DNA from: Nemertoderma westbladi | Lineage: Eukaryota > Animalia > Xenacoelomorpha | Assembly: GCA_032718475.1 (NCBI GenBank) | Contig: JAUCBJ010001639.1 | Location: forward strand, 1-64,000 | Length of the DNA stretch: 64,000 nt | Direction: 5' to 3' | Shown here: positions 20,313 through 45,439 of the stretch, piece after piece | Layout of the letters: each line of letters opens with the position of its first letter | How positions within the stretch are numbered: the stretch's first letter is position 1 | Program-made: the position numbers and the translations under genes | Notes under the pieces: model-generated | Seen by the model: only the letters and a program-made list of their open reading frames with translations | The model's database searches: none | Told to the model about the DNA's origin: nothing

Positions 20313-22467
20313 TGATAAACAACCGCGACCTCTATACTAACAGCAGAACTGTTGAACAGACAAATACTGGTATACTTCTCTGCCAACCTAATAAGTTCCC
20401 GCCTAACCAATAAGACACAAAGACTGCTCTACTGTTAAGTAAAGGGGATCAGGAGCGTGCTATTACTAAATTGTAAGGGTTGCTAAATACAAAACCGCTA
20501 CTTACCGTTAGATGGCGCTAATCTGCCGTCCACTAATATATTTTACTAATTTTACACAACTCCTGCAAAATCGCTTGTTCCTTTCTCTACCGATTGCTCG
20601 ATAGAGAGCTAACTGTTCGAATCTATGAGCCACGCGGGAGTAACCAAAACAATAAACCCGAGTCGGCTCCCTAAGCTTACTTAAGACGAGTGCGAGAGGC
20701 CTTGCACTCAGAGTATTCTTACGCCTAATTTTATCACTTATTAAAGCACGCTATTACCTACGTCTTTCTAATCGCGAATACTGGAGGTTCCCTAACGTAA
20801 TGTGTGAATGCGAGAATATTTAAAATATCAAAATGGTACAGTATCTGTTTCTACGTGGATAATACCACCCCGGGTCTAAAACTGCCCGCGACTGGCTTTA
20901 GGCCAGCAAAATTACTAGCGTATCGTGCGTACCGAATAGTGCGTTCTAGCTGATTGCCCGCTAATGCAAATAACCGCTCAGCGTGAATAGTTTACAGTAC
21001 ACTAATTATTACCTTAGCTACTCTCCGCTATGCTGCGTACTAATTCTTAATTTTTTACTAATTAATTACAGTCACGAATATTTAACAGCGTACTAATTAC
21101 TAAGAGTTCCAGAATACGTAATTCTAATTTATCACGCAACAGGTTTCGATAGTAATAGCCTAATTTGCCGTATTACTTTGACCTAATCAATAACTAATCA
21201 TTGTAACTAAGAAATAGAAATCAATCAAAAGAAAAGAGCGCCTATCTAAGCATTCGTGATCTTAGGCACACTTCAATAACACACCAATCAGCGTTAGAAA
21301 TCACAGTTTACAATTGTGCAATTCACTACTCGTACTCCACACTCAACGTTTTAATACGCGCAGGCCTCTCCCGGGTACATCTAGGACTCCTAACTAACCC
21401 AATTCCTGCCCCCCTAATACTAAATAGAGACAAAATCTGGATCATCAGCCCCCTAATTACTGTACCGGCGATCGGTCTGCGTGCCGCAGTGCAAGTTACC
21501 CGCCCGCAACGGTGACCCTGGCCAGCGTTGCTCGCTTTGAATCCTCCGCTCTCTCCTAGTCGCTCAACCCCCCGATGCGCCCACCGCCCACTGGCACCTT
21601 AGCTCTCCATGATGCTAATAGCTACCGTAGCGGCGCATGCAAATCACAAAGTCTGACAGTCTCAGAATCCCTTAGGATTATTGCGCAGAAAGAATCACAT
21701 AGAACCATTAATCAAAGGTAGAAATCATAGTTCAATTGTAATTAGCAGCAATCAAAGGAATTATTGAGAAACACAAGCAAGTAATCGCACTAGCAAATCA
21801 TTTCACGAAAATTAATCAAATTAGCAAATTGCAGAAAATATCCAGAAAAAACAGCAAGACAGGTGCTAGGGCTAGGTGTCATGTGATGAGTAGAGTTGTT
21901 GTGAGGCTCTACCGGCACACCGCCAATTTATAGGTGATCCGGATGGGGTGATGCAATAGGGTGACTCAATCGCTTTCTTATTGGCTCTCCAGTCCGTGCT
22001 AGCACTAGACCAACCTGGAAGCAGCTAGTCCAATAAGGAGGCCGGATTGTAGCCCTATTTGCTTCCCTTCCTCGAATTATTACCATATATGGTAATGGTT
22101 CACGTCTCTGGCTGCTGAATGGCCAGGACAGCGTCCCTATATGCTAGCCCTACTAAAGCTAATATCAGCAAGCACTGAATCCAGGGTCCGAATAAACTTA
22201 CCCTGGAACTATCTACATATAACCTAATACAAAATTACGTAGGTAGGGCTACATACTATACAAAATGGATGGTTTCAAATATATGGGCGTTTTGATTTCC
22301 CTACCTAAATACCACTGCGTTATTATGCCTTATCTAAAATATCATGCTGCACAACGGACTAATATTACGTACAGTATAACGGACTAATATTGCATACTGC
22401 ATAACGGACTAATATTGCATACTGCATGATGACTAATATTATGGATACAGCGCCATATACCGTAACA
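20313..22467 (-). repeat. 3' LTR (2155 bp)
   Basis: Direct repeat of 37098-39252. I found only one difference by eye (G20783 vs A37568). A 25-bp tandem repeat ACGGACTAATATTGCATACTGCATA lies at 22354-22441. Confidence 0.96.
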
Positions 22468-22701
22468 CCGCTCCAAGGGAAATCATATAATGTTTCCCTC
22501 CAATTGTAGAAGAGTATAAGGTGATGTATACAAAACAAAATAAATTTCTTCCAACCAATCTAAATAACATAATAATTCTACTATTTACAAATATTGCCAT
22601 AGATATTGCATAATGAGTTACATACAAATTAAATTTACAAAATATTGTTTCTCGTTCATTCTTACTACATAATGATTACTACATACAAAATCAAATATAA
22701 A

Positions 22702-22893
22702 ATTTGCTAGGGCAAGTGAAAGGAGTAAGCCAAACCCGCAGGTTTGTCTCCCCAATCACTTCCTTCGCCTCTTTCAATAAACTTTAGAGCAAATAAAGTC
22801 ATATACACAAATCAAATATAGTATTTGCTGGGGCAAGTGAAAGGAGTAAGCCAAACCCGCAGGTTTGTCTCCCCAATCACTTCCTTCGCCTCT
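22702..22893 (-). repeat. Two ~70-bp direct repeats in the element's 3' UTR, each folding into a long stem-loop
   Basis: TTTGCT(A/G)GGGCAAGTGAAAGGAGTAAGCCAAACCCGCAGGTTTGTCTCCCCAATCACTTCCTTCGCCTCT at ~22703 and ~22824. Confidence 0.9.
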
Positions 22894-23026
22894 CTCATAA
22901 TATAAATTCAAAATAATTATGCAACTAGTGTATATGAGTCTAGTCGAAGATTTTCAAATGCTACAATATACATCAGAGCGACGATGATGTATATATCTAG
23001 AGTCTGTCGCCCTGTGCCATAATGTA

Positions 23027-25645
23027 TTATCGACCCGCTCCTGGGTTCTTTGGGCTCGCTCCTCTCTTTCGCCCCCTTCCCAGATACACCAGTCGTCCTC
23101 CAGTCGACTCCGTTGACGGCGTCCGTGAGGCGTCACTCCCCGGAACCGACGACGACGTTCCCTGAGCCCCGACAGATTCTCGGCTCGAACTTCTCCCTCG
23201 GCCTCGTCCCAATTGTCGCGCTCCCGTGGTCGCTTCCGCCAATTCTTCCTTCTGCAGTTGCACACGCGCTTTCTCAGACGCCCCCTGCGCCTTGCGCTGC
23301 AACCGCTGCGCTTCTATAATAGAGTGGTAGTGGTCGTCCTTGACTTGACGCTTGTCTTGGACCCCTCCTCCTGGTTCTTTCCGCGAGCCTTGAGCTCCAG
23401 CGGTCGTTGCTGTGGTCGCTGCGATCCTTTGTTCCTGTATCCTCTCAGCGGTCAATGAACCCACTGGCACATGAGTCAACAAGAATTCGTTGCGGTATTG
23501 TATAGCCGCCATCCTCCAATCACCTCGCGCGCGTACCACTTTTCTAGTCTCCGTAAATACACCCTTCGTGATGCGATCGCAAATAGCAACGAAGTTCCAT
23601 GTGTACTTATTGTCCATGTTCAATTGTCTGAAGTACTCTCGGACTACGATAACTCCAGTGTTTTGTGGAAGGTCTTGAGCAGTTAGGATGTGCTCCTGAT
23701 ATTGGGGTAGCGATTGAAGATATGGCTCGTACGCAACATGCGATGGGTCTACCGCCCAAAACCCATACCCCGCTTTAAATGGTAACCAACGCATCTGCGC
23801 TTGGATATGGTAATCCGCCACACTCTCCCACTTATCTAACATCTCCCGAAGTAGGTTAGCGCTATGGTTTTGAAAGGAATCATCTCGCAGCTGACATCTC
23901 GCGCTACGGTGTCCTTTTACTCCACAATATCCACATTGAGAAATGAAGACGGTGCACGTGTGAAACGAATGGTCGGTCTCATTACACCAACGGCAGACCT
24001 TATGCGCCGCCTCTATTACCGCGTCGCACGACTTTAGATTGTGCCTTGTGCTGCCGCACAATTTGCACCTACGCGCTTGTGGAAACCAGGCCCTCTCGTA
24101 TATGAGGTCTCCAATCGGTTTCGCACTTCCTTCCTTCCCAATGTCTAATACGATGTCGTCCTCTCCGGTCAACGGTTGTCGATCCGGAACAAAGTAAACA
24201 TCCTCGCCCTTGTCCTCTATCTCCAATATTTCCTCCCGTGTTCGTTTCGGATATGTCTTCTCCACCGGAAGATCTACTCCGAACACCTCTACTAAAGTCT
24301 CCGGCCAGCCCTCCTTAACAGGTCTATCAGCCTCCGAGTGGAAGGGAGTACCAAACCCGCGGGTTTGATTCCCGAACCACTTCTCCAAAGCTTCTGGCGT
24401 CGGATATTCCATCGACGGTCGGTCTCCCAAATCTCCGATATTCTGTCGATATATTCCTTCGAATATCGCTAATCCTCTCCTCACCATCGACGTATTCTCT
24501 AACGATTGGTTGAAGAACGGGGTTAAGAAACGCTTCATCACGTCGGATTGGATTCCCCCTTTCGAGCGAACGTATTGATCTCCTCCGAATACCAATGGAT
24601 GACGCTTCAAAACTCGCGCAACGATATCCGCTAATAAACAAGTCACCGTGTTCGACTCAAGCACCAAATAATATTGTAGTGACGCACGGGGTGGCGCGCA
24701 AATGTTCCAATACACTAACGCTTGCTGCTTGAAGTGGGATTTGAACTCCGCTCCCGGTGGCGTGTTGTATTCGCCATACGCCTCCTCATACTTCTTTTGC
24801 GTCTTCAACTTAAAGTCCCAATTATACAACAAGTGTGCTATAAAGCCCATACCAGTCTTGGCAGAGTTGGGATACTCCCTATAAATTCCAATATCCTGTG
24901 CCCATAGCAACAATAGCTTGGTGTCGACAAACGGTCTCGGCAATCTATCTTCCAGATCAGTCATGGCGTTGAAGTCGCTCTCTAAATCGCTCTGGACTCC
25001 CGATCCCACCTTGACGTAATCTTGGTTGAGAATAGCCTCTCTAACTTTCTTTGGTAACATCCTGGCGTCGATACGCTCTGCTCCGTGCATACCTCCTCGC
25101 CTGCATACCTCCAAAATCTGTTCCCTAGGATCCTTCCCCTTCCGATATTGTGTCGTTATGATGGGCTCCGGTCTCTCTCGATCCGCCCTCACACGCATAA
25201 ACACATGAGTCACACCATCGGCCGCACGAATTTGAATACACTTGCTGGTCAAGCATTCCTGATGGGACCCTCCTTCATTGTCGTAGAACATCACTCTCCA
25301 ATCCTGCAGTGATTCCTCCGTTTTCCTCCACTGACGCTGAATCTCATCTGATGGGGTCCACATGCGCTCGATCGCCTTGTGGTCATCATATCGGGTATAA
25401 GAACCCTTCCTCCTCAGCCACGTCTGGTCTACCTCCTCGTCATCTGGGAATGTAGCCACCGCGACCCATACCTTGATGTACTTATCCAACCATCCGAATA
25501 GCTTACTCTCCTTTCCCGGAGCTCCAATCTTGTCCAACGTGTCATAATCTGTGATCTGCATTGGGACATCACGCAAGAACTTCGCGCATAAAACTTCCCG
25601 TAAACAGTCAACGTTCCAATGGTCCGCCATTCTTACCATCGGCAA
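23027..25645 (-). CDS. Accessory protein: DEDDy-type 3'-5' exonuclease domain, 3 CCHC zinc knuckles and a basic RG-rich disordered tail
   Basis: ExoI VMFYDNEG, then CIQIRAADGVTHVF. ExoII LPKKVREAILNQDYVKVGSGVQSD, then FVDT. ExoIII-like W...PPRASLQYYLVLE. Knuckles CKLCGSTRHNLKSC, CRWCNETDHSFHTC and CGYCGVKGHRSARC. The track start is TTG; the first ATG is at 25639. Confidence 0.8.
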   Translation of the reverse strand: MPMVRMADHWNVDCLREVLCAKFLRDVPMQITDYDTLDKIGAPGKESKLFGWLDKYIKVWVAVATFPDDEEVDQTWLRRKGSYTRYDDHKAIERMWTPSDEIQRQWRKTEESLQDWRVMFYDNEGGSHQECLTSKCIQIRAADGVTHVFMRVRADRERPEPIITTQYRKGKDPREQILEVCRRGGMHGAERIDARMLPKKVREAILNQDYVKVGSGVQSDLESDFNAMTDLEDRLPRPFVDTKLLLLWAQDIGIYREYPNSAKTGMGFIAHLLYNWDFKLKTQKKYEEAYGEYNTPPGAEFKSHFKQQALVYWNICAPPRASLQYYLVLESNTVTCLLADIVARVLKRHPLVFGGDQYVRSKGGIQSDVMKRFLTPFFNQSLENTSMVRRGLAIFEGIYRQNIGDLGDRPSMEYPTPEALEKWFGNQTRGFGTPFHSEADRPVKEGWPETLVEVFGVDLPVEKTYPKRTREEILEIEDKGEDVYFVPDRQPLTGEDDIVLDIGKEGSAKPIGDLIYERAWFPQARRCKLCGSTRHNLKSCDAVIEAAHKVCRWCNETDHSFHTCTVFISQCGYCGVKGHRSARCQLRDDSFQNHSANLLREMLDKWESVADYHIQAQMRWLPFKAGYGFWAVDPSHVAYEPYLQSLPQYQEHILTAQDLPQNTGVIVVREYFRQLNMDNKYTWNFVAICDRITKGVFTETRKVVRARGDWRMAAIQYRNEFLLTHVPVGSLTAERIQEQRIAATTATTAGAQGSRKEPGGGVQDKRQVKDDHYHSIIEAQRLQRKAQGASEKARVQLQKEELAEATTGARQLGRGRGRSSSRESVGAQGTSSSVPGSDASRTPSTESTGGRLVYLGRGRKRGASPKNPGAGR

Positions 25646-25711
25646 GAATCGTATCGCTTCTCGCGACTCCGGATGATCTACTAATATCGCAGGTTCGGTG
25701 CCGTCGGAATA

Positions 25712-26734
25712 TTACACCGGTCTGGGTTGAGATACGACCTGTGGAACAAATCCGGTCACTCTCCTCGTCTCCTCTTGATGTCTATCCGCGGTCTTATTAT
25801 ACTCCGCTATCCTGTTCTCAAATAATTCCTTCGCCTTCGCCGCTCGCTCCTCCTGCCGCAACGCGTCTATGTCGTCCTGATGCTCAGGCGTGAGGCTTCT
25901 CACTCGGTGAGGTGAAGTAAACGCAGTCCAGGGACTCGAGAGCTCCAAACCCGCGGGTTTGGTACCCGAGTCCCGCGCCGCTTCGCGCCGCGCCTCTAGA
26001 TCCTTATAGGCTCGGTACAGCGAAATGGCCGCTGCCGTCTCTATCAAACTGGGTGTCGAACAGGGTTTAATCTCCGTATACGGATCTAATGTCGTAACGG
26101 TCGGCGTAATGGGTCTCGGAGGTCGCTTTCCGCTGAAGTCGATACTGATCATCGGGTTGCTCATCGGGTAACCTCCCTCGTTATATCTAAGGAATTGGTG
26201 AGCTGGACATCGCGTTAATATCGGTTCCGGATGTTGCTCGTCTAGTCGGTCGGGAATCGCCACGTCCTGTTTATTCATGCATTCACCACACTTGTAGAAG
26301 AGCTTGTATACGCTGAAGACTTTCGGCGTCTCCTGATCCTCGCCTCGAGTCCTCCGATACAGGTGCATTCCGTCGAACTGGTCTCGGACTGCAGGTAGAG
26401 GCTCCTCGTGTCGTAAATACATATTCATATGGTATAGTCGTGCGATTTCCTCGTCCGGATCTGCGCTAATGTCGCACACGTCCAAAGCAAAGTCGTAGGG
26501 ATACCGCGTGCGATACTCTTTCCGCAAGACTTCCATCCGGTCCCCCAACGCTCTCATTCTTTCTCTCCGTAATTCTTTATCATAACTTGGTTTATACTTT
26601 CCATTCAGCTCCATCACGGACTGCCCATGGTAGTAAACGTTCGAATCTTTACATCCCGGTCGCGCGAATGGTAGCTCCGCCTCCTCTCTGGCAGTAAATC
26701 CTCTGCGCGGTTGCGCTCTAATATCCCTCTCCAT
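25712..26734 (-). CDS. Accessory ORF of unknown function, in frame with the exonuclease ORF across one TAA
   Basis: 340 aa from ATG 26734 (the track starts at an upstream TTG, 26767). Has a CGEC...CPAH putative metal site and the same coding-like GC content as gag-pol. Confidence 0.7.
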   Translation of the reverse strand: MERDIRAQPRRGFTAREEAELPFARPGCKDSNVYYHGQSVMELNGKYKPSYDKELRRERMRALGDRMEVLRKEYRTRYPYDFALDVCDISADPDEEIARLYHMNMYLRHEEPLPAVRDQFDGMHLYRRTRGEDQETPKVFSVYKLFYKCGECMNKQDVAIPDRLDEQHPEPILTRCPAHQFLRYNEGGYPMSNPMISIDFSGKRPPRPITPTVTTLDPYTEIKPCSTPSLIETAAAISLYRAYKDLEARREAARDSGTKPAGLELSSPWTAFTSPHRVRSLTPEHQDDIDALRQEERAAKAKELFENRIAEYNKTADRHQEETRRVTGFVPQVVSQPRPV

Positions 26735-27491
26735 TATGTTACGCGTATATACATATATATATCCCAATAAGTGCCGTTACGTAACCAACTACACTGTGGG
26801 TAAATCAGTTAGATGCCGCCGAAAGACAGACCTCCCGAACCCCCCCGCCTTCCAGCAGTTCAGGTTCGACTCTCTAGATCCCGTCTCTTCCTAACTAACT
26901 ATCCTCTAACCTATTCCCATGCATAGCGCAAAAACTTTGGAGATAAACTGGCCGTGACCAACTCACTTTTTGATGCCCAAACTACTCCCATTACTCTTAC
27001 TAAACTACAGTAGTTAGAAAGGACCATAGCCACAATACTCGACTATACCAAACCCACAGGTTTGATAATCGAACATCACACATCCTGCAAACTACTGAGT
27101 GGGGTCCATGCACGCCTCTGGTGCTACTAACCTCTAGCACCTTAGTTGCACTGTTGGCACCAATCTGTGGAAGTTGCTAAACTCAATTTACACTCCTACG
27201 TAATATAGCCGTCACCATGGTTTCTAAATGCTATTTTCCAGGCTTCACGACTTTTCAAATTACTGTTTATCTATAGACGAATTCTAAAACGCGTCTATAC
27301 ACAGCGTCTGGAATTGTCTTGGGTTCACTTCTAATTTTTAAAATTTTCTAATTTTCCAAAAATTTTGAAAATAAAATTTTGTTTTTGATACCCACTAGAC
27401 AAAACTCAACGCAAATCACCACAACCCCGCTCCTATGCATTTCCTTGTATTTGCACACGAGGAATGCATACGAAGTGAGTTGCGTCCAACA

Positions 27492-30400
27492 CTAACTCTG
27501 TTTTGAGGCAGGAGACAAATTATAATCTCCCGTCTCGATACGTGTCTCCTCTAATAACACAATATCTTGGACCGGTCGGTCCAAGGTGTGTAAACCATTA
27601 GTTTTACACTTTTTTGGGTGCGGACACTTGCACCTAATTTTCACAGTGACTGTGCGCACTATGTTTTGCACGTCTGGGTGTGTGTGCAAGATCACTCCAG
27701 TCTCCCAATACTTTCTCTTGACAATAGGTTCGGTTATCAGTACGTAATCTCCCCTTTGGAGACTCCGAACCGTCTTGTACCACTTTGTTCTGGTAGATAT
27801 GGTGGGAAGATAGTATTCCCGCCAATATTCCCAGAATGTGTACGCCACAAATTGAGTTACTTTCCAGCTTTTACGACTATATAGGTCGGCACTAATGGGT
27901 TCTGATGCCGGCACAAGAAATGCTGGACTCTGCATTAGCAAATGATTCGGCGTTAATGCAACACCGTCTGGCAACATAGCTATCGGCCTCGAGTTTAGGG
28001 TATGCTCGATTTCAATGAAAGCTGTAACCAGTTCGTCGTCGGTAAGTTGTTTATTTACAGGCAATGTTTTGGCAATGGCCTGCTTCACAGAGCGAACCAA
28101 ACGCTCCCAACTTCCTCCTCTCCAAGGACTCTCTGGAGTATTAAATCTCCATTCTACTCTTTGCGGCAAAAGTGCTGCAGAAATTTCCTTATTCTGTGCT
28201 GCTTTATGAGCCGCGTTCAACTCGCTATTCCCTCCGACAAAGTTTGTACCCTTATCGGAGTAGAACGCCTTTACTAGTCCTCTCCTGGCCATAAATCTCT
28301 TTAAGGCCAGGAGCAGAGATTTGGTCGACATGTCTGCCACACGCTCAATGAGTATGGCTCTACTCGCCATACATGTCAGTAGCAGACCCCATCGCTTGTG
28401 GGTCAGCCGTCCACTCTTTGCTTCAATCGGACCAAAACAATCCACCCCTGTGTTCGTAAAGGGTGGGTCATATGCCTGCACTCTCGCTTCCGGGAGTTCA
28501 GCCATCTCCTGTTCCAATACTCTGGCGTTCACCCTCTTGCAAACCAGACAGGCGTCGTACATAGTGCCTACTGCCCTGCTTGGCTGCAATAGAATGAATC
28601 GCTGTCTCGCTGCCGACAGACAGTGTAACTTTCCCGCGTGATGCAACCTCTTGTGTATATCCCATAGAATCGCTCTTTGCAATTCTATTGGGTGACTAGG
28701 GATTATCACTGGGAACCGAAACTGTGAGTTTATGTCGACAGTCTGGATTCTCGATCTATGACAAATTAAACCCTTATGGATTAATGGACTCCATTTTCTA
28801 AGGGGTTTATAGAGAACTGGTCGTTGAGCCGATAATAGATGGAATTCTTTGGGGAAGGCACACATTTGATAATGCTTCAAATGCTTTAATTCCGCTTGAT
28901 CAATCTCATCCTCTGTCAGAGGTTGTTTCAATTTCCGAATTCGCTCACTATTGGTGCTCAATGGTTCTCTCAAATGTTTCGAATGTTTTAAACGAAGGTA
29001 CAAAATATATCGGCTTAACCACGCAGTTCTTTTACAAATTGTCAGCCAAGAGGCAGACGAATTTAGTAATTTGTCATAAACACTGCATGACTCTAATGCC
29101 AGCGACGGTTGTCCGCTAACCAATGGAAGTTTCGAATCCAAACCCGCAGGTTTGGAAACCAAGGGATCCATTGTGTCGGTCATTTTCTGTCCGTCACTTA
29201 CTAACTGTGACTGTCGTCTAGTCTGTAAGGGTGGTTTTATGTCATAACTTACCCTTCCGGACCTAGTAGTCACGTAAGTCTGTTGGTCTGACAGGTCTCC
29301 AGGCCGCTCCAATGACTCTTCAGGCCGCTCCAATGACTCTTCAGGCCGCTCCAATGACTTAAGTTTGGCTTTAGACTTTGACTTAGAGACTTTCTCCACT
29401 TTGACTTCTGCATCTTCAGGCATCGGATTGGTCACAATCTTTAGTCGCTCTGGCCAATGTTCCTGTGTCCTCGTTAGAAAATCAGGTCCGTGCAACCAAA
29501 ACTCCTGCGACTCTTCCTGACAGAATTCCGCCGGCATTGCACCTCTCGAAGTTATGTCGGCCGGGTTTAACACTCCCGGACAATGTCTCCATTGTTCCTT
29601 CGTCGAAAAATCAACGATCTGAGCGCGTCTATTGGCCACAAATGTCTTTAGTGCAATATTGTCGGCCGCAATGTATACTAACACCAAGGATGCGTCCGTC
29701 CAATAGAATAAGGTCAATGTCGTGTCTAACTCCTCAATTATTTGCTTACTTACCTCAACTGAAACTACTGCCGCCTGTAACTCTGCACGAGGGACAGTCA
29801 TGTATTTGACCGGCATTGTCTTTGATCTAGAAGTCACAAAGGCCGTCTCAAATTTGTCCTGACTTACCTCTCGGCGAAGGTAGGCTACCATACCAAAGCC
29901 GGTGTCACTTGCGTCACTGAATAAATGGAGTTCGAGATCAGCTGGAAATACCAGCTGATTCGGAAAGTAGGATCGGGGTACATCTATATTTTTCAATAGA
30001 TGCAACTCGGCTTCCCACTCTCTCCACTGCTTTGCATGTATAGGAGATATTGGTTCGTCCCACTCTAAGTCGGACAACCAAATTTTCCTCATGCACGCTC
30101 GTGCCTGTAATATAACCGGACTGATAAAGTTCATCGGGTCAAATAGTCTACTCAATGTCGATAAGCAAATTCTCTTAGTCAAAATTTTGTCTGGGCTACT
30201 GGGCTCAAATCTAACTCTTACCTGGAACTTGTCTGAGTTCGGGTTCCAAGCGAGTCCCAGTACTCGCGCCATTGGGATTGGTTCTACCCCCAATTCAATG
30301 TCTCCGCTCCCGCGATCCTTTACCGGGAACGATTCTAATAGGGCCTCCGAGTTCGTAGTGAACTTGGTTAGAGGAAAACCCCCTGTAGCCAAGCACTCCT

Positions 30401-33400
30401 GTAGGCCGTGAGCCACTTCTATGGCTTGTTCCGCCGTGTCCTTGGACACCAATCCGTCGTCCATGTAGAAGTTTCTCAAGATGGACTCGATCACTTCTAC
30501 TGGATACTTACCAATCTGGGCTGTTGCCGTTTTCTTTAGAACAAACAGCGTGCCGTTTGGACTATCGCGGGCGCCAAATATCCTAACGTACATCTGGTAT
30601 GTAACCACTGGGCCGGATAAGTCTTCATTCTCATACCAGAGAAAGCGAAGGCTATCCTGGTCTGCCTTACAGGCTCTTACCTGGTGGAACATCGCCTCGA
30701 TGTCACAAGTAAATGCGAATCGCCGCTGTCTAAAACGCAACAGTATTCCAATCAAATAGTTGTTCAGGTTGGGACCATCCATCAACTCTGAATTCAGGGA
30801 CATACCTCTATAGACTGCTGCGCAGTCGTTGACTACTCGGACTTTGTCTGGCTTGTCAGGGTGAGTCACATAGTGGTGTGGAAGGTAATAAGTCTGGTCT
30901 GTCACTAAGTCAGGGTCCTCTACCTTCCCAGCAAATCCCTTGGCGAAATAGTTGTTGATCTGGGCGCAATACTTCTCCCTAATGCCTGGATTCTTCAACA
31001 ACCGAGCCCTTACTCCGTTTAATCTTTTCAAGGCTAAGTTGTAGTTGTTTTCCAACTTAGGTGGTTGTCGACGCCACAACATTCCAACTTCAAAATGTCC
31101 AGTCGGTAGTAGACGTATGGTGTCTTCCATCATCTCCAGCGACCGTTTTTCATCAGTAGACATGGCTAGGTCATATCCACCGGGTTCCATTGCGTCCCTA
31201 TCCAGCCATTCGACGGTTCTGGCTCCTGTCTCGAGGTCCTGGCGTATCAATTCCTTCTGTAATTCCTCCTCACTGTACTGGAAAATGTCTAGGTCTCGAT
31301 ATTTAGCCACCTGACCCTCCACTATGTCTGTATAAGTCAAAACGTTAGTCAAATAGGTAGCGTGGGCCGCTGAACCAGACCCACGGGTCTGATAACAGTA
31401 GTCCTCGGGTTCACTATCTGTCCGGTCGTTGTGAAGTGGTTCCGACAACCTAACATTATCGGGAATCAACTCCTCGTCCGACTCGCTAAAGTCACTATAG
31501 TGGTCAATACAGGTTCTCCTAAACTCGTCTATGTCTGGTGGTTCTACTAACGGTGGTTGAGTTATAGGCTGTAATTCATCGTATCTGTCCATTGGCTTGC
31601 CGCCACCTGTAAACTCATAAGACATGGGTACTCTTGTATACCAACCTAATATAGTCCTATGGGCATGTGGTCCATTAACATGCGGCTCAGCTGGTCTCGT
31701 TTCCCATATCTGGTGTGCGATCAGCTGTTCTGCACCAATCAACATAGAAACATTCCTATAACCTACCTGGTGTCTGGGTATCCTGAGCTTGTCAAAATAC
31801 TCCTGTGCTATGGGACTCATCGGCGGCACCTTACCTAACTGCCTGCCGAATCCCTTCATAGCTAGACACTTAAATCCGTCCAATGGCAAAGCTTTCCGTT
31901 CTTGTCGAGTATGTTGGTCTCTCGGAAGTAGGGAATCTAGTTCTACCGAAATTCTGTGTCCCTTGAGGTCACCTACTCCATGCATAGACTTCAACTCTAT
32001 TTGGATCTCCTCGGCGTCCTGGAAGCTAGAAACAGCTCTCGCCACTTCCTCGTCGATATACGATAATGTGGACGCAGTGTCCAACATCACATATATTCGT
32101 TTCGATCCCTTATCTCCAGTGAGTTTCACCGGAATCACGCTAAATATTTCCGACGTGGCCGATGATAAATACGTCCGCGCGCTGGTCGATGAACTATCCG
32201 CGGTGAAACCTTGGCAGGTCACTTCTCTCGCGCTCGACTCGCCATCTTCGTCCGACGAACCTGGTTGGTAACCATCGTCCTGAATGCTGGTGTACGTATT
32301 CCTCCTTATCGATACGGGTTCTTTGCTCCCCTTCCTTTGAGGATTTCGCTGTAAGTAACGGTCCGTTGGGGTGTGGAAATCCGCATGTAGCAACTTGTGA
32401 TGTAGTCTGCCGCATTCCATGCATCCGTCCTTGCTGTTCGGGCACTGCCGCCGTACATGGCCTGGCGCAAGACATGCCCAACAGGTGTCCAACGTCCGCA
32501 CTTGAACTCTTCTCTGTTCCGAATTTAATTCTTTGAACCGTCTGCAACTATCTAACTTATGGTCGTCAGATCTTACCTCCTTTAGTAAACAGTATTGGCA
32601 ACCTACAAATCCATCCGGCAACTCCTGTTGCTTTAACCTAGGTCTATCTAACCGCTCACCTGACCATACTCGCGAGTCTGATCTAAAGGCTGGGGTACTC
32701 GAATTATATCTGTCTACTGAGTTAAATGTCACAGTGGTCCTGTCATCGTCAAAACTTACCATAGACTTACCGGTAACAGGTTTAGACTCTCTCATATTCT
32801 CTTCTGAGAAGTTTGATTTCATCTCTGCTACTGCGTCTGTGGCTATCATGTCATGAATATGCTGAAGTGTCAATACTTTACCTTGGCCCTCCAACTTATT
32901 CTCTAATTTGCGCCATTTCTGTCGGTAACGCATGTTTAGACGTCTTATTACGCTTTTCAAAACCTCGGCGTGATCACCATGATGAGGTAGATTCACCATC
33001 CTCAAGATGTCCAATGCGTTCGAAATAGCGTTCGCTAAGTTCAACAGCTCTAACGGAGTTGTAATCCTTCCGCCCTTACCCAAGTCTTCTACTATCGACT
33101 GCGCCATCTTGGTTTTATTCCCGTAGATGTCACTAAGCGTCTTCATCGCTAACTCAAACGCTCTCTCGTTGCCGACGAAGTTATCAGCAATGGCTCTAGG
33201 TTCTCGATGGAGCATTTGAAGCAAATAGTTGAACTTCTCGTTGGGAGTAAAGGTGCTGTTGGTTAGCTGCTCGTCGACATAGGTTTTGAAGGTCCTCCAG
33301 TGCTTATGGTTGCCCATAAACTTCTGGGGTTGTTGCGTCGGCAGTCCTTGCCTAGCAGCAAACTTACCTATGTCCCTAAGGGTTGCGTCGTTCCGGGTTA

Positions 33401-33797
33401 ACAAATGGTTTAGTTCCGCAGGGTTGTTAAGTCTGGTCCTTTCCCGGTGGTTCCAACTTACCTGCTCCGCGTCCGTCCTTCTTTCCTTATAGTTTCGGGA
33501 CTTCTGACGTCTCATGTCTTCCTCTTCATTGCTTGACTCGGTGTCAGTCCTTAGCGCTCGCGATGGTTTGCGCGCCGAGGCCCTGACCCAAGCCTCCTCA
33601 ATAAATTTCTCGGCCGAATTTTCGAAATTGGGATTATGGATATTCGGGACAGGCGTCCTTACCTGAGGTCTATGTGGTATAGTCTCCTCCGATATGCGTA
33701 CTCGTTGACTAGGCTGGACTTTATCTAACTCAGGCCTGCTAGGATTAGAATTACTTCTTACCTGGGCTGCTTCCTTTAACCGTAGGTTGCTAAGCAT
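27492..33797 (-). CDS. BEL/Pao Gag core-Pol polyprotein (Gag/DUF1759-like, zinc knuckles, aspartic protease, RT, RNase H, integrase)
   Basis: KFMG...W..F (gag); CQYC..H..C, CWAC..H..C, CMEC..HH..LH; MLDTAS (protease); YYLPHH.V..PDK..KVRVV.D, DIEAMFHQV, FYMDD (RT); LHLFSDAS, VPRAELQAA, NPADI.SRG (RNase H); GVDCFGP, SDKGTNF, PWRGGSWERLV (integrase). The frame stays open upstream to the TGA at 33975. Confidence 0.97.
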   Translation of the reverse strand: MLSNLRLKEAAQVRSNSNPSRPELDKVQPSQRVRISEETIPHRPQVRTPVPNIHNPNFENSAEKFIEEAWVRASARKPSRALRTDTESSNEEEDMRRQKSRNYKERRTDAEQVSWNHRERTRLNNPAELNHLLTRNDATLRDIGKFAARQGLPTQQPQKFMGNHKHWRTFKTYVDEQLTNSTFTPNEKFNYLLQMLHREPRAIADNFVGNERAFELAMKTLSDIYGNKTKMAQSIVEDLGKGGRITTPLELLNLANAISNALDILRMVNLPHHGDHAEVLKSVIRRLNMRYRQKWRKLENKLEGQGKVLTLQHIHDMIATDAVAEMKSNFSEENMRESKPVTGKSMVSFDDDRTTVTFNSVDRYNSSTPAFRSDSRVWSGERLDRPRLKQQELPDGFVGCQYCLLKEVRSDDHKLDSCRRFKELNSEQRRVQVRTLDTCWACLAPGHVRRQCPNSKDGCMECGRLHHKLLHADFHTPTDRYLQRNPQRKGSKEPVSIRRNTYTSIQDDGYQPGSSDEDGESSAREVTCQGFTADSSSTSARTYLSSATSEIFSVIPVKLTGDKGSKRIYVMLDTASTLSYIDEEVARAVSSFQDAEEIQIELKSMHGVGDLKGHRISVELDSLLPRDQHTRQERKALPLDGFKCLAMKGFGRQLGKVPPMSPIAQEYFDKLRIPRHQVGYRNVSMLIGAEQLIAHQIWETRPAEPHVNGPHAHRTILGWYTRVPMSYEFTGGGKPMDRYDELQPITQPPLVEPPDIDEFRRTCIDHYSDFSESDEELIPDNVRLSEPLHNDRTDSEPEDYCYQTRGSGSAAHATYLTNVLTYTDIVEGQVAKYRDLDIFQYSEEELQKELIRQDLETGARTVEWLDRDAMEPGGYDLAMSTDEKRSLEMMEDTIRLLPTGHFEVGMLWRRQPPKLENNYNLALKRLNGVRARLLKNPGIREKYCAQINNYFAKGFAGKVEDPDLVTDQTYYLPHHYVTHPDKPDKVRVVNDCAAVYRGMSLNSELMDGPNLNNYLIGILLRFRQRRFAFTCDIEAMFHQVRACKADQDSLRFLWYENEDLSGPVVTYQMYVRIFGARDSPNGTLFVLKKTATAQIGKYPVEVIESILRNFYMDDGLVSKDTAEQAIEVAHGLQECLATGGFPLTKFTTNSEALLESFPVKDRGSGDIELGVEPIPMARVLGLAWNPNSDKFQVRVRFEPSSPDKILTKRICLSTLSRLFDPMNFISPVILQARACMRKIWLSDLEWDEPISPIHAKQWREWEAELHLLKNIDVPRSYFPNQLVFPADLELHLFSDASDTGFGMVAYLRREVSQDKFETAFVTSRSKTMPVKYMTVPRAELQAAVVSVEVSKQIIEELDTTLTLFYWTDASLVLVYIAADNIALKTFVANRRAQIVDFSTKEQWRHCPGVLNPADITSRGAMPAEFCQEESQEFWLHGPDFLTRTQEHWPERLKIVTNPMPEDAEVKVEKVSKSKSKAKLKSLERPEESLERPEESLERPGDLSDQQTYVTTRSGRVSYDIKPPLQTRRQSQLVSDGQKMTDTMDPLVSKPAGLDSKLPLVSGQPSLALESCSVYDKLLNSSASWLTICKRTAWLSRYILYLRLKHSKHLREPLSTNSERIRKLKQPLTEDEIDQAELKHLKHYQMCAFPKEFHLLSAQRPVLYKPLRKWSPLIHKGLICHRSRIQTVDINSQFRFPVIIPSHPIELQRAILWDIHKRLHHAGKLHCLSAARQRFILLQPSRAVGTMYDACLVCKRVNARVLEQEMAELPEARVQAYDPPFTNTGVDCFGPIEAKSGRLTHKRWGLLLTCMASRAILIERVADMSTKSLLLALKRFMARRGLVKAFYSDKGTNFVGGNSELNAAHKAAQNKEISAALLPQRVEWRFNTPESPWRGGSWERLVRSVKQAIAKTLPVNKQLTDDELVTAFIEIEHTLNSRPIAMLPDGVALTPNHLLMQSPAFLVPASEPISADLYSRKSWKVTQFVAYTFWEYWREYYLPTISTRTKWYKTVRSLQRGDYVLITEPIVKRKYWETGVILHTHPDVQNIVRTVTVKIRCKCPHPKKCKTNGLHTLDRPVQDIVLLEETRIETGDYNLSPASKQS

Positions 33798-33974
33798 GTC
33801 CGTTATAGGTTGGATGTGCGGCGATATAGCTTGCGCTAAACTAGCACTTAACTCATCCCTCGTAATAAATTCCTGGCTAGGGTTCTGTTGTATAGTCGGC
33901 TCTATCTGAGTAATCCGCTGTCTCTCATATGATCCCTCTTCCGGTTTAACCCGGAAGTTCTCCGTCGAACTGGG

Positions 33975-35801
33975 TCAGCGCTCCGTCCGCGTATTCCAAA
34001 CCCGCGGGTTCGGTTCGCCAAGTACTCGTCCCGTCGGAGTTTCTCTAAACTCTTCATCGTCGTGTTCGGTGTGTAGTGGTGCGATGTTCCGATGACGTGG
34101 ATTCTGCGCGATGGGTGAAGCACTAATACCAACTGGCGTGCGATATGTAGAGAACGGTTTAGCGATCCGTGTACTCGTAATAGCTGGACCGGGTATAGGA
34201 ATTCTGGTCGTCGTCGACTCGCGTATGGTCGGAGTTCTCGCTTCCTGTTCGGCCTTCTGCAGTGCGAACAGTTCTCGCAACTCAGTACCTACACTCGCCC
34301 CACATTCTTCGATCATTCGCATCCCCTTCTCGGCGATTTCGTTCGCCTTCCTAGTCCGTTCTTCGCTTTCTAAACTTAATCTCGCACTTTCCAACTGCGC
34401 CAGTTTACGTTCTTCTTCTTCCCTCGCTCGTCTCGCTGCGCCCTCTTCTTCTACACGCGCCTTCTCTTCATACAACGCCCGTCGCTCCCTCTCGCGCTCA
34501 AGTTCGCGCTCCTTGCGCACGCGTTCGAGTTGGAGTTCGTATTCCTTTTGTTCGCGTTCCTTCTGTTCGCGTTCGAGCTGGAGTTCGCGTTCCTTCTGTT
34601 CGCGTTCGAGCTGGAGTTCGCGTTCCTTGCGTTCGCGTTCCGCTTGCTCGCGCTTACCTTTCTCTTCCAACTCTCGCAACTTTGCGTCTAACTTACGTGT
34701 TCGCTCCCGTTCCCACTCGGCTTCCTTCCGTGCTTCCGATGCACGCAAAACTTCCGCCTGCTGTTCGTCTAGTCGGCGTCTTCTCTCCTCTGCCGAGTTG
34801 TGAGAAACAAGGGATCTAGCACATATTACCTTACCTCGCGCGTGACTAACCTGGGAATCGCCGCTGTCTCTAGATGCATCATCGGGTGGAGTCAACGTCC
34901 TCTGTTGGATGTTCTCCGTCGTCGGTAGCACCTGGCCCGGCACCACCACTCCATTCTGCATCAGCCAGCTAGTAACTTCCCTTTGATACCTGCGCTCCTC
35001 CTTGTCTTGGATCTCTTCTCGCTCCACTAACTCTCTCAGCTCTGCGTCACTCACTTGAGTCGCCTGCGCTTGTGATGTCCATAGCAGCCAGTTCTCCGTC
35101 CTAACTCGTCGGAATCGCTCCGATAACTCGCGGTGCTCTAACAAGGCTGCTAAAACCCTGTCGTAAATCCTCGTTGCTACGTCGCTCGACTGAGACTCTA
35201 CTGCCTTCTTCGCTAGGACTGCAAGCTCCTCCGTCTGCTTGAATAACGCTGAGTTATATCCTCTTCTAATCTCTACTAACTCTACCCTCCCGATGTTCGC
35301 TGAGTCAGCTAACATCTTCCTTACCTTGTCCGCCGTCCGGGTTATATGTCCGGCGTGCGCGCGAAGTTTCTTCTTTATCGCGATATCAAGTTCTCTCTCG
35401 CTTACCTGACTCACACTCGGTGGACTTGAAGGATTATTTCGGGAACTACGGGTACTCCTTACAGCCGTCGGGACCACGGCACTTACCATACCCACAGGTC
35501 TGGAAACCGGGCTCCGGGCTCTCGCTTCTGCTACACTACCCTCCCTATCACTCACCTCTGTCCGGGCTGCCGTACAGTCCTTCCTTACAGTAGCGGTAGG
35601 GGATCCTAATACTATTACCTGAGGTTGTTGTTCTTCCTCACTAGTCACTGTCTCGTCCTCCTGTTCACTTACGTCAGCGTCGCTCGCTGCGTCGTCATAG
35701 TCGGCATTGTCGTCAACAGTAATATTGACGCTATCGTCAGTCGGCGGTCCAGCCGCCGTCTCGTAGCTGTCCTCTAGTGCCTCCTTGTCTGAGACACTCA
35801 T
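33975..35801 (-). CDS. N-terminal Gag-like region (acidic N-terminus, long E/R-rich coiled coil), in frame with pol across one TGA
   Basis: 608-aa first ORF after the 5' leader, with ERELQLEREQK repeats. Same frame as 27492-33797, with 59 sense codons between them. Confidence 0.8.
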   Translation of the reverse strand: MSVSDKEALEDSYETAAGPPTDDSVNITVDDNADYDDAASDADVSEQEDETVTSEEEQQPQVIVLGSPTATVRKDCTAARTEVSDREGSVAEARARSPVSRPVGMVSAVVPTAVRSTRSSRNNPSSPPSVSQVSERELDIAIKKKLRAHAGHITRTADKVRKMLADSANIGRVELVEIRRGYNSALFKQTEELAVLAKKAVESQSSDVATRIYDRVLAALLEHRELSERFRRVRTENWLLWTSQAQATQVSDAELRELVEREEIQDKEERRYQREVTSWLMQNGVVVPGQVLPTTENIQQRTLTPPDDASRDSGDSQVSHARGKVICARSLVSHNSAEERRRRLDEQQAEVLRASEARKEAEWERERTRKLDAKLRELEEKGKREQAERERKERELQLEREQKERELQLEREQKEREQKEYELQLERVRKERELERERERRALYEEKARVEEEGAARRAREEEERKLAQLESARLSLESEERTRKANEIAEKGMRMIEECGASVGTELRELFALQKAEQEARTPTIRESTTTRIPIPGPAITSTRIAKPFSTYRTPVGISASPIAQNPRHRNIAPLHTEHDDEEFRETPTGRVLGEPNPRVWNTRTER

Positions 35802-37097
35802 AGTCTAAATAATATTTGCCTTCCGGCAAAATATCTCGCAAAAGTTCGAGATATTATTATAATTTAACCGAAATACGGTCAAATTATTTGTCAAATAATC
35901 AGTTGGTCCAAAATGTCAAATAAATTCACAATGCAATATTGTGAATTTAATGGGGTATATAGTTATAGCAAATACTAGCACAATATTTAAACAAAAATAT
36001 TATTATATAGCTATTATATAGCATTAAATACCGGTATAGCACAAAATAACCTTGAATCTAATACAAAATATTCAAAATATACTTGCCGCCCGAATATTTC
36101 TAATTTTATATATATATAGCTCTAATCAACGTAATTTTAATTTCAAATATTATTATGTATCCACTAGCGCGTGGCTACATCTTCGGGTTGCGACTCTCTC
36201 TAACTCTCTCTCTAACTTGAGCGATTCAAAAAACCATGGCCGGCTAAACCTAAATATCCTAACTAATAAATTGAGTTCAGCTTCGCAGTTAAACAACCGG
36301 TAATTTTTTACTGCTTCCACAAACAGTATGGTGCCAACAGAACAACTAACCTTGTTTGCTGTGAGATTCCACGTCCGCGTCCAAAGATTCAGGCCCTTCG
36401 CTGATTGCAAACCGAACCCGCAGACCCACACGAACCCCAAACTCAGAAGTTCCGTCTTGCCATGTATCTCCAGATGGTATAAAATAACTAAGCGGTTACC
36501 TAACATACCGGTACAAAACTCTAGAATTTTACAAAATAATTTTGACCGAAACTGAATTCTCGCAAACCTAGCTAATAATTTTCAAAAAACTTACTAATTA
36601 CAATTTGCCCTAAGGCCTAAGGAACTGCTGTATTCGCAATTAGCAAAACGCACTACTGTACATCCACTGTATGCAGTACAGTAAGTAAAACAGTACACCA
36701 ACCTAACAGCCTAATGATACTGTGTATGGTACGGCAAAACAAATGTCCTTCTACCGTACGCAGTAATAACAATCAGCCTAATGTACTACTGTACTAGTGT
36801 ACGCAGCCAGTGAATACAGTAATCTAAACTAACAACCTAATAGAATAACCAATGTCTTACTGTACGCTAGCCTATAGCCTACAGCAGACGATCACGTGCT
36901 CCAATTTATTGCCTAATACTATGATACTCTAATCAGCCTAAGAACACTCTATTGACCGCTGCAAGCAACAGCCAATAGCGCGTATTACTGATACGAAGTA
37001 TCAGTAATCTAAACTAACAGTAGTCTAAACTAACAGCCTAAGAATACTCTATCTGCCTTACTGTACGCAGTGCAGCAAAGCAATATACGCGTATTAC

Positions 37098-39252
37098 TGA
37101 TAAACAACCGCGACCTCTATACTAACAGCAGAACTGTTGAACAGACAAATACTGGTATACTTCTCTGCCAACCTAATAAGTTCCCGCCTAACCAATAAGA
37201 CACAAAGACTGCTCTACTGTTAAGTAAAGGGGATCAGGAGCGTGCTATTACTAAATTGTAAGGGTTGCTAAATACAAAACCGCTACTTACCGTTAGATGG
37301 CGCTAATCTGCCGTCCACTAATATATTTTACTAATTTTACACAACTCCTGCAAAATCGCTTGTTCCTTTCTCTACCGATTGCTCGATAGAGAGCTAACTG
37401 TTCGAATCTATGAGCCACGCGGGAGTAACCAAAACAATAAACCCGAGTCGGCTCCCTAAGCTTACTTAAGACGAGTGCGAGAGGCCTTGCACTCAGAGTA
37501 TTCTTACGCCTAATTTTATCACTTATTAAAGCACGCTATTACCTACGTCTTTCTAATCGCGAATACTAGAGGTTCCCTAACGTAATGTGTGAATGCGAGA
37601 ATATTTAAAATATCAAAATGGTACAGTATCTGTTTCTACGTGGATAATACCACCCCGGGTCTAAAACTGCCCGCGACTGGCTTTAGGCCAGCAAAATTAC
37701 TAGCGTATCGTGCGTACCGAATAGTGCGTTCTAGCTGATTGCCCGCTAATGCAAATAACCGCTCAGCGTGAATAGTTTACAGTACACTAATTATTACCTT
37801 AGCTACTCTCCGCTATGCTGCGTACTAATTCTTAATTTTTTACTAATTAATTACAGTCACGAATATTTAACAGCGTACTAATTACTAAGAGTTCCAGAAT
37901 ACGTAATTCTAATTTATCACGCAACAGGTTTCGATAGTAATAGCCTAATTTGCCGTATTACTTTGACCTAATCAATAACTAATCATTGTAACTAAGAAAT
38001 AGAAATCAATCAAAAGAAAAGAGCGCCTATCTAAGCATTCGTGATCTTAGGCACACTTCAATAACACACCAATCAGCGTTAGAAATCACAGTTTACAATT
38101 GTGCAATTCACTACTCGTACTCCACACTCAACGTTTTAATACGCGCAGGCCTCTCCCGGGTACATCTAGGACTCCTAACTAACCCAATTCCTGCCCCCCT
38201 AATACTAAATAGAGACAAAATCTGGATCATCAGCCCCCTAATTACTGTACCGGCGATCGGTCTGCGTGCCGCAGTGCAAGTTACCCGCCCGCAACGGTGA
38301 CCCTGGCCAGCGTTGCTCGCTTTGAATCCTCCGCTCTCTCCTAGTCGCTCAACCCCCCGATGCGCCCACCGCCCACTGGCACCTTAGCTCTCCATGATGC
38401 TAATAGCTACCGTAGCGGCGCATGCAAATCACAAAGTCTGACAGTCTCAGAATCCCTTAGGATTATTGCGCAGAAAGAATCACATAGAACCATTAATCAA
38501 AGGTAGAAATCATAGTTCAATTGTAATTAGCAGCAATCAAAGGAATTATTGAGAAACACAAGCAAGTAATCGCACTAGCAAATCATTTCACGAAAATTAA
38601 TCAAATTAGCAAATTGCAGAAAATATCCAGAAAAAACAGCAAGACAGGTGCTAGGGCTAGGTGTCATGTGATGAGTAGAGTTGTTGTGAGGCTCTACCGG
38701 CACACCGCCAATTTATAGGTGATCCGGATGGGGTGATGCAATAGGGTGACTCAATCGCTTTCTTATTGGCTCTCCAGTCCGTGCTAGCACTAGACCAACC
38801 TGGAAGCAGCTAGTCCAATAAGGAGGCCGGATTGTAGCCCTATTTGCTTCCCTTCCTCGAATTATTACCATATATGGTAATGGTTCACGTCTCTGGCTGC
38901 TGAATGGCCAGGACAGCGTCCCTATATGCTAGCCCTACTAAAGCTAATATCAGCAAGCACTGAATCCAGGGTCCGAATAAACTTACCCTGGAACTATCTA
39001 CATATAACCTAATACAAAATTACGTAGGTAGGGCTACATACTATACAAAATGGATGGTTTCAAATATATGGGCGTTTTGATTTCCCTACCTAAATACCAC
39101 TGCGTTATTATGCCTTATCTAAAATATCATGCTGCACAACGGACTAATATTACGTACAGTATAACGGACTAATATTGCATACTGCATAACGGACTAATAT
39201 TGCATACTGCATGATGACTAATATTATGGATACAGCGCCATATACCGTAACA
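37098..39252 (-). repeat. 5' LTR (2155 bp)
   Basis: Direct repeat of 20313-22467, with TG...CA ends, followed by the TSD AGCTA. Confidence 0.96.
38680..38885 (-). promoter_or_regulatory. Putative Pol II promoter in the LTR U3
   Basis: Minus-strand TATAAA at 38717-38712. Upstream: TGATGCAAT (C/EBP-ATF, 38734-42), TGACTCA (AP-1, 38747-53), CCAAT boxes (~38765, ~38815) and a CArG box CCATATATGG (38868-77). Motif matches only. Confidence 0.55.
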
Positions 39253-42467: not shown

Positions 42468-42610
42468 CAATGCGATTTAAATGTTCTATTGTCCTAGTTG
42501 ATTTCATAATGTGTACTAAGTGAATTTCAACACCATTACTTAGGTCAGGAGGGTTTGAATCTTTAGGGGAAATATCTTCCTTGTTAAACCCCGAATTAAG
42601 AAAATTAATA

Positions 42611-43555: not shown

Positions 43556-43663
43556 TTTTCTGATGCGATTTTCCATTTAGATTTGATTATTGGAGATTTT
43601 AATACTAACTTAGATTTTCCCTGTTTAGGAACAATAACCTCTGCCTCTTTCCCTAGGTGCTTA

Positions 43664-44917: not shown

Positions 44918-45439
44918 TCCTGGAGGGGTTCTGGCTAATTTTCCTCTGAGGAAGTGAGAAATTCTGGACCAGTGAACCATGAATACATTATTAATTCAGC
45001 TGCTGTTGCACCCCGAGAAGCAATGTCAGCAGGATTCTGCACTGGCTTCCATTGATCTACTGTAGAAGAGTGTAAAATCTCTGTAATACGATTACGCACG
45101 AAATCCTTAAAGGTGCATCTGTTGTTGTGAAGTTATTGCAGCACCAATGAGGCATCTGTCCAGAAGATGGTAGAGTTAATGGGGATCTCGATTTGAGTTT
45201 TGATTAGATTAGCGAGTTGGACAGCATAAACAGCTGCCTGAAGTTCTGCTCGTGGAATGGTAACTATTTTTGGAGGAAGAGTTTTGGACTTACTTGATAT
45301 TAATGCAGTCTTGATCTCTCATGAACCACTTTCAGATTTAGCACGAAGGTATGCCACTACTCCAATGCCATGGTTACTGGCATCTGCGAAAACATGGAGG
45401 GCGAATATACGTCCAGAATTCTCCTTGAAATACTGACGG

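Follow-up and report, generated by a model that had tools for sequence, protein, structure and literature searches.

Ten dispersed copies of a predicted sense-strand hairpin in a BEL/Pao retrotransposon of Nemertoderma westbladi, candidate docking sites for Gag zinc knuckles

The element and its reading frames

The contig stretch analysed here, a window of 64,000 nucleotides from the xenacoelomorph Nemertoderma westbladi, contains a full-length BEL/Pao long terminal repeat (LTR) retrotransposon of ~19 kb on the minus strand (20313-39252), which hosts an array of short predicted hairpins on its sense strand (Table 1). BEL/Pao elements are recognized by TG...CA LTR ends, a short target duplication, a Gag protein with three zinc knuckles and a single gag-pol open reading frame (ORF). 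All of these are present here, and the domains follow the order Gag-protease-reverse transcriptase (RT)-RNase H-integrase. The two LTRs differ at a single base over 2155 bp and the element is flanked by a 5-bp target duplication, AGCTA, indicating that the insertion is young. Pfam matches are PF03564, PF05380 (E 4e-39), PF17921 and PF18701. Homologues number 1449 at E<=1e-50; the closest are ~40% identical, and the named ones come mostly from echinoderms, hemichordates and cnidarians. The family has a very high summed depth in public sequencing runs, which fits many copies, although no copy number can be derived from it. Directly after the 5′ LTR, the sequence at 37040-37097 recurs in degenerate form ~120 nt downstream; no primer tRNA could be assigned by eye at 37040-37097.

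The four long ORFs of the window are two in-frame pairs, a gag-pol frame with an in-frame stop near 33975 and an ORF3 with an in-frame stop near 25712. Both stops are missing from essentially all other family contigs in all four public runs and are therefore lesions private to this copy; the family carries one gag-pol ORF and one ORF3. The "accessory N-terminal ORF" and "end of ORF1" that a preliminary description of the locus treated as ORF units are artefacts of these stops. Near-identical LTRs thus coexist with one private nonsense change in each long ORF, and for this reason the RNA of this non-autonomous copy was likely mobilised in trans, with all hairpins intact. We also considered programmed readthrough or a selenocysteine insertion sequence (SECIS), as there are two in-frame stops and a hairpin lies 12 nt before one of them. 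Such systems have an in-frame stop common to the family and, for a SECIS, an RUGA/GA quartet. The candidate was rejected as both stops are private to this copy; the quartet was not found in the sequence, and there was no Rfam match.

ORF3 is predicted to encode a DEDDy-fold protein with three CX2CX4HX4C knuckles, and the accessory triple-knuckle protein of the preliminary description is upheld at the level of the fold by both profile and structure searches. No Pfam match was found in ORF3, and word-indexed protein searches with ORF3 or its alignment returned no relatives. A full HMMER scan recovered eight distant relatives (P0121-P0128) that share its layout: an exonuclease-like domain, a set of three CCHC knuckles and, at the C terminus, a conserved motif. 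The C-terminal tail of the family is of the FAD-G...R...GFF type, the main domain has no Pfam match, and P0121 has the knuckle module twice. The family profile matches EXD2 (E 6.8e-4) and Lin28 knuckles. The acidic residues are kept as D-E-D-Y-E, the last acid being Glu in ORF3 and in two of the eight homologues. The structure model used, with a mean predicted local distance difference test score (pLDDT) of 51, matched DEDDy nucleases in Foldseek at E 1.6e-4; a single-sequence fold (pLDDT 32) was unusable. Comparison with Nibbler (VIA) gave Z 12.4 and a root-mean-square deviation of 3.8 over 196 aligned residues; diDNase, apPol and RNase D came within 1 Z of this value, and no subfamily is distinct. 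An Atlas match to PF01612 (0.91, 158 shared features) serves as a lead only. Collectively, the models and profiles point to an RNase D-like DEDDy exonuclease fold with the ExoI, ExoII and ExoIII acidic residues. The idea that ORF3 mimics Egalitarian (Egl) is unsupported, with Egl at Z 10.3 and rank 12. Two of the eight homologues were sought in viral contigs and yielded no locus, nor did a pol search there. DEDDy ORF3s occur in bdelloid LTR elements (PMC5408684; mention in PMC6338049).

A repeated hairpin on the sense strand

Seven dispersed copies of the hairpin had been listed in the preliminary description. All seven are present at their positions, and three more (31376, 32665 and 35487) raise the total to ten. 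The minus-strand pattern CAAACCYGYGGGTTTGG, with <=3 mismatches, gave 16 matches at nine places where 0.24 were expected, a number reached in 0 of 100 shuffles. The covariance model that the preliminary description had called for was built from eight copies and scanned over the 64-kb window. It recovered the copies found by pattern together with a weak tenth at 32654-32693 (15 bits, E 0.049), copy 3 (32665), which was outside the training set. The best match outside the element had E 0.75, and by weight matrix the tenth copy scored 16.3 versus 12.4 for the best site outside. The earlier observation that the motif does not occur outside the element is borne out by both scans of the window, and the covariance model found no full copy in the LTRs, the 5′ leader (35510-39252) or the other 45 kb. 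No Rfam family matched the element at E 1. The exact 17-mer has one occurrence in each of 32 viral contigs, which we estimate to be about chance. In the 5′ leader, tandem 3′ half-copies of the motif lacking the 5′ arm lie at 36410-36445 (minus strand); two match YGYGGGTYYG, and they fold into a long leader stem (z -1.6).

The predicted hairpin has a 6-bp core stem, a YGYG loop, a 2-nt bulge on the 3′ side and a lower stem that varies in its letters yet stays paired. The sense-strand consensus is Y-CARACY-YGYG-RGTNTG-G, with one copy having G at core position two; 12 of the 18 core positions are invariant, and the base preceding the core is a pyrimidine in eight of nine independent copies. The three loops reported previously, UGCG, CGCG and UGUG, all occur (three, four and two copies), and a fourth, CGUG, is present once. 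Loop G2 and G4 are found in all ten copies and a C-G closing pair in nine.

Since the core is nearly palindromic, RNA had to be separated from DNA; several cores fold equally well on either strand. Copy 10 (22731) was dropped from the covariation test as a duplicate, leaving the eight training copies. In these, flank positions 3-7 pair at a fixed +2 offset in 29 of 40 cells, compared with 20.6 +/- 3.0 cells after swapping flanks among copies (p 0.005, with offsets and windows scanned) and 14.8 +/- 3.1 at random sites. Four other copy sets, with the tenth copy added or with 22852 or 24352 left out, gave scan-corrected p values of 0.007-0.02. In the 13-pair structure, which was derived from the same copies on which covariation was counted, pairing holds in 84.6% of cells and both partners change in 7 of the 13 pairs; its 12 double-change cells were equalled in 0 of 500 shuffles. 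RNAalifold independently proposes the identical lower stem. Within the core, changes are compensatory at copies 4 (31376) and 3 (32665) and wobble-compatible at copy 2 (33997), and copies 1 (35487) and 3 (32665) have a G-A mismatch in common. Wobble cells on the sense strand comprise 13 G-U and 0 A-C in nine copies (background share 0.52; p 2e-4). The sense-strand RNA structure suggested earlier is thus supported by register-fixed covariation and by this wobble bias. From fixed loop and stem letters on a variable, paired scaffold we infer an RNA site that is read by a protein.

Shuffling the flanks copy by copy on the minus strand was significant in only two of nine copies, so the structural signal comes from the shared register. 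The outer stems listed in the preliminary description do appear in the folds, at z -4.1 to -4.7 in six copies, which include both 3′ untranslated region (UTR) duplicates. The other four are no more stable than shuffles (z -0.7 to -1.6), and copy 5 (29139) uses another outer-stem register; both points count against a uniform fold.

Table 1. Positions of the retrotransposon features and hairpin copies in the window
Feature	Position	Strand	Description
5′ LTR	37098..39252	-	2155 bp
Leader arm, predicted long-range RNA duplex	36310..36365	-	covers the leader's only strong splice-donor-like site (36350)
gag-pol frame	27492..35801	-	coiled-coil extension, DUF1759 Gag, three knuckles (32385-32600), protease, RT, RNase H, integrase
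Hairpin copy 1 (new)	35478..35509	-	Gag N-terminal extension; loop UGUG; one G-A mismatch; frame 3
Hairpin copy 2	33988..34019	-	Gag N-terminal extension; loop CGCG; core G-U; frame 2
Hairpin copy 3 (new, weakest)	32656..32687	-	Gag, directly before knuckles; loop CGCG; closing pair U-A; frame 2
Hairpin copy 4 (new)	31367..31398	-	protease-RT linker; loop CGUG; core compensatory A-U to G-C; frame 1
Hairpin copy 5	29130..29161	-	RNase H-integrase linker; loop UGCG; frame 3; outer stem in different register
Spacer arm, same predicted duplex	27130..27185	-	upstream of acceptor-like sites 27000 and 26794
Hairpin copy 6	27040..27071	-	pol-ORF3 spacer; loop UGUG
ORF3	23027..26734	-	N-terminal part of no assigned kind, predicted DEDDy exonuclease fold (motifs 25285-24653), three CCHC knuckles (23894-24067)
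Hairpin copy 7	25937..25968	-	ORF3 N-terminal part; loop CGCG; frame 3
Hairpin copy 8	24343..24374	-	ORF3 exonuclease-knuckle linker; loop CGCG; frame 1
Hairpin copy 9	22843..22874	-	3′ UTR; loop UGCG
Hairpin copy 10	22722..22753	-	3′ UTR; loop UGCG; tandem duplicate of copy 9
3′ LTR	20313..22467	-	2155 bp; 99.95% identical to 5′ LTR; TG...CA ends; hairpin-free

Spacing, placement and predicted splicing

The copies are evenly spread along the element. When the tandem pair is treated as one site, successive gaps measure 1500, 1594, 1103, 2090, 2237, 1292, 1329 and 1490 nt, a range of 1103-2237 nt with a coefficient of variation of 0.23 (p 2.2e-4). The p value is 0.0015 if the tenth copy is left out, 0.006 if the tandem duplicate is counted and 1e-5 if sites are drawn only from positions unconstrained by protein homology (8,954 of 14,630). 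The two gaps above 2 kb fall over RT-RNase H and integrase, regions in which the protein offers no room for a copy. Seven copies are coding, six of them in stretches that are homologue-free or where <=11% of homologues align. The description of a motif kept within coding sequence in differing peptide contexts holds for these seven, which fall in all three frames (two, two and three copies); the encoded peptide is therefore not what is conserved. Flanks are unrelated among copies (<=16/32 identical) while cores are kept, and a search for peptide traces of the motif gave one weak match in 229,597 residues (129 proteins).

Variation within the family was followed around copy 2 (33997). Across family contigs of the four runs its 32-nt hairpin shows 0 variable sites; 15 fall in 111 nt of 5′ flank and 0 in 97 nt of 3′ flank, the private stop being omitted (Fisher p 0.023 versus the 5′ side, 0.23 versus both sides). 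For four more divergent contigs (81-85% alike), alignment is confined to the stretch between 33925 or 33946 and 34019, the outer edge of the hairpin, which hints that sister families keep this region. Directly 3′ of copy 2, a stretch of ~100 nt without family variation (33890-33987, minus strand) contains a second 7-bp hairpin near 33937-33956; together with copy 2 it is possibly a larger RNA element. Of a subset of 40 of the 1237 family-variable places, 0 lie in hairpins; with fewer than one expected, this zero is uninformative. In 19 distant BEL/Pao loci (34-44% identity, 117 kb, partial) we found no motif, no hairpin family of more than two members and no ORF3.

A 27-nt inverted repeat joins the leader to the pol-ORF3 spacer, 9 kb apart. 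The predicted duplex has an energy of -55.8 kcal/mol, versus -35.8 +/- 2.2 for 20 shuffles, and would loop out the whole of gag-pol. Its position over the donor-like site, along with branch motifs accompanying the two acceptor-like sites, is consistent with ORF3 probably being expressed by splicing. Six of the ten hairpins lie in the predicted intron. An export element of the Rev/Rev response element type is confined to the intron of the unspliced RNA. The likeness to that system drawn in the preliminary description is weakened here, as four of the ten copies would remain in the predicted spliced ORF3 RNA.

Elsewhere in the window, a Sec1-family gene without introns (6-1745, minus strand, 579 amino acids), which we take to be VPS45-like, is followed by an intact piggyBac-type transposase ORF (2304-4217, plus strand, PF13843). 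A cluster of a dispersed ~460-nt repeat with palindromic units occupies 41200-45000, a fragment of RT of the LINE type lies at 50726-52198 (minus strand), and a 39-nt satellite of ~80 copies fills 60849-64000.

Candidate readers of the array and known counterparts

The reading that we favour, with a probability of roughly 0.45, is that the hairpins are dispersed docking sites for the zinc knuckles of the element's own Gag. The fold would form in vivo, the invariant loop G2 would sit in a knuckle pocket like G218 of the UGCG loop in Rous sarcoma virus (RSV), and the 3′ bulge and fixed upper-stem sequence would add specificity. Bound to the hairpins, Gag would cover and condense the 17-kb RNA and pick it out for particle assembly; ten sites on the full-length RNA versus four on the predicted spliced RNA would favour selection of the genome. 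In UNCG-type loops position 2 is normally free, and here it is always G. In the second Gag knuckle the aromatic position is occupied by Trp, and this knuckle has matches to retroviral nucleocapsid (NC) proteins, including RSV NC 2IHX (E 0.003-0.03); all three ORF3 knuckles lack an aromatic residue at that position. The preliminary description had compared the loops with the knuckle-bound SL2 and SL3 of HIV-1 NC; a loop read by knuckles is plausible, although the UGCG of RSV SL-C is the better precedent. In the RSV muPsi signal an NC knuckle holds the second G of the UGCG loop, and changing UGCG to GAGA caused a ~10,000-fold loss of NC binding (PMC8833184, PMC5035970, PMC7599994).

Several observations weigh against Gag docking. 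The aromatic residue is unconserved, being present in 31 of 109 Gag-type and 5 of 23 ORF3-family knuckles, and is a weak discriminator because it varies in both families. The RSV precedent is itself disputed as to the role of the loop: loop mutation left the specificity of full Gag unreduced in vitro, and a GC-to-UU change was without effect on packaging (PMC8833184, PMC5035970, PMC7599994). The 5′ leader and the LTRs, the regions to which packaging signals of retroviruses and Ty1 have been mapped, are free of copies. For Ty1 those signals are at the 5′ end, packaging of Ty3 depends on the UTRs or POL, and helper assays show the internal sequence of both to be dispensable (PMC4974528). Four of ten copies would stay in the predicted spliced ORF3 RNA, and the 19 distant loci have an ordinary Gag and no array. 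Dispersed signals proposed for satellite tobacco necrosis virus (STNV) are without discernible role in vivo (PMC6475782). At the level of the fold, the G-U cells are partly non-independent, several sharing one invariant G. In a 256-nt context the fixed-register lower stem has a probability >0.5 in only three of ten copies. The two 3′ UTR copies are predicted to pair with one another in long context; under a limited span they fold singly, but copy 2 (33997) then does not.

The hairpins could instead be self-tags read by ORF3. Through its knuckles and its conserved C-terminal motif, the DEDDy exonuclease would be held on element RNA, where it might protect that RNA against small-RNA silencing (trimming of bound guides is one conceivable way) or exert Rev-like feedback on splicing and export. 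We regard this as unlikely, though it draws on several features of the locus. The unusual ORF3 and the array co-occur here and the 19 distant loci show neither, but those loci are partial contigs at 34-44% identity and their co-absence is weak evidence. An RNase D/EXD2/Nibbler-type fold with its acidic residues, joined to Lin28-like knuckles, would suit such a role; against it, the canonical aromatic is missing from the ORF3 knuckles, and the Nibbler match is shared with three other nucleases on a model of pLDDT 51. Even spacing suits a protective tag per unit length better than a nucleation site, and the predicted duplex masks the splice donor, making regulated splicing plausible. Drawn together as RNA-level self-recognition, in which a tag placed every ~1.5 kb in a free linker or frame is read by ORF3 to provide an anti-silencing shield or, through the donor-masking duplex, a switch between spliced and genomic RNA, the proposal is doubtful.

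A host RNA-binding protein acting in export, stability, localisation or splicing might also be recruited, so that a long, intron-poor transcript is treated as self. Even spacing fits a per-length signal here too, and there are precedents: Egalitarian reads stem-loops with a 3′ bulge, including that of I-factor RNA (PMC13186709), and SF3A1 and PTBP1 read UNCG-capped stems on U1 SL4 (PMC8833184). However, Egl targets share shape and little sequence, which does not fit the invariant core positions seen here. The lack of an Rfam match and the freedom of the other 45 kb, host gene and other transposons included, from any copy also argue against a host reader, and we think one rather improbable.

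The remaining explanations fare worse. The near-palindromic cores could swap partners, giving RNA-RNA duplexes that zip two genomes or compact one without any dedicated protein reader. Self-complementarity of the CGCG loops and a predicted extended duplex between the two 3′ UTR copies speak for this, yet same-site pairing between genomes needs no common loop or stem sequence across sites, UGUG and CGUG loops are unable to kiss, and the conserved register of the 3′ bulge is left unexplained; zipping is accordingly very unlikely. Equally remote is the idea that the palindrome (CAAACC-N4-GGTTTG) is bound as double-stranded DNA by a protein of the element or the host, as VANC motifs are. The near-perfect palindrome of the core does match on both strands, several cores fold as well on one strand as the other, and VANC motifs are also family-specific and co-oriented, so that orientation alone is not decisive (PMC5735166). 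A DNA site explains neither the pairing of unrelated flanks at a shifted register nor the 13:0 wobble bias and the double substitutions at 31376 and 32665, and knuckles apart, no DNA-binding domain was found in ORF3. Finally, it is scarcely credible that template switching multiplied a small palindrome whose copies have no function and survive only where linkers tolerate them: the 3′ UTR pair is a recent tandem duplication and family-level constraint reaches only p 0.23 versus all flanks, but cores are kept between unrelated flanks, spacing is far more even than random even inside tolerant regions, and the long LTRs contain no copies.

How LTR retrotransposons select their own RNA is poorly defined even in Ty1 and Ty3, whose packaging sequences still lack precise definition (PMC4974528). 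We found no description of an evenly spaced hairpin array in an LTR retrotransposon in open-licence full text, and nothing on self-RNA selection by BEL/Pao elements in the open-licence literature. The short, conserved, ten-copy hairpin is a ready-made ligand for binding tests and for cross-linking and immunoprecipitation. Its even spacing implies selection on the distribution of the signal along the RNA, beyond its mere presence, and the array could give a first candidate function for the DEDDy ORF3s of retroelements.

Among known systems, VANC and its VANDAL motifs resemble the array in having a short family-specific motif in one orientation and an element-encoded accessory protein. That analogy, raised in the preliminary description, fails on two features: VANC binds double-stranded DNA and its motifs lie in non-coding tandem repeats (PMC5735166), whereas here the evidence is for RNA structure, seven of ten copies are coding, and copies stand >1 kb apart except for one duplicate. 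Egalitarian signals, including the I-factor localisation signal, share an upper and a lower helix split by a bulge on the 3′ strand and a reader with a DEDD-fold domain. Such a signal is described as a pair of helices, each at least 6 bp long, with a bulge on the 3′ side and U-A pairs at two positions; Egl reads its shape and U-A pairs, with little sequence identity among targets (PMC13186709). The 3′ bulge is predicted here, an unbroken lower helix of at least 6 bp is present in only some copies, and ORF3 is not specially Egl-like. The bdelloid elements Juno and Vesta, compared by layout and domain, carry downstream of pol an additional ORF whose product has an RNase D-like DEDDy domain (PMC5408684). 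In contrast, the present element is BEL/Pao and its ORF3 has three knuckles and a conserved C-terminal motif; no repeated RNA motif is mentioned in the available part of that paper.

The dispersed packaging signals of MS2, STNV and hepatitis B virus are similar in consisting of many stem-loops with a common recognition motif and stronger and weaker copies (PMC6281560). Multiple predicted stem-loops with a common motif on the strand to be packaged are also what we find, although the viral signals are degenerate, numerous and contested in vivo (PMC6475782) and those described here are few, highly conserved, evenly spaced and in an LTR retrotransposon. With RSV muPsi SL-C (PDB 2IHX, bound by the N-terminal NC knuckle) the array shares a C-G-closed loop of the UGCG type, exact in three copies, an exposed G2 and element-encoded CCHC knuckles. 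The RSV signal is a single, compact copy in a three-way junction of the 5′ leader; here ten stand-alone bulged hairpins are predicted, seven in ORFs and none in the leader, with no full copy present at 35510-39252. By analogy with these systems, the array would work like dispersed packaging signals built from an RSV-like loop; it falls outside the leader-psi class.

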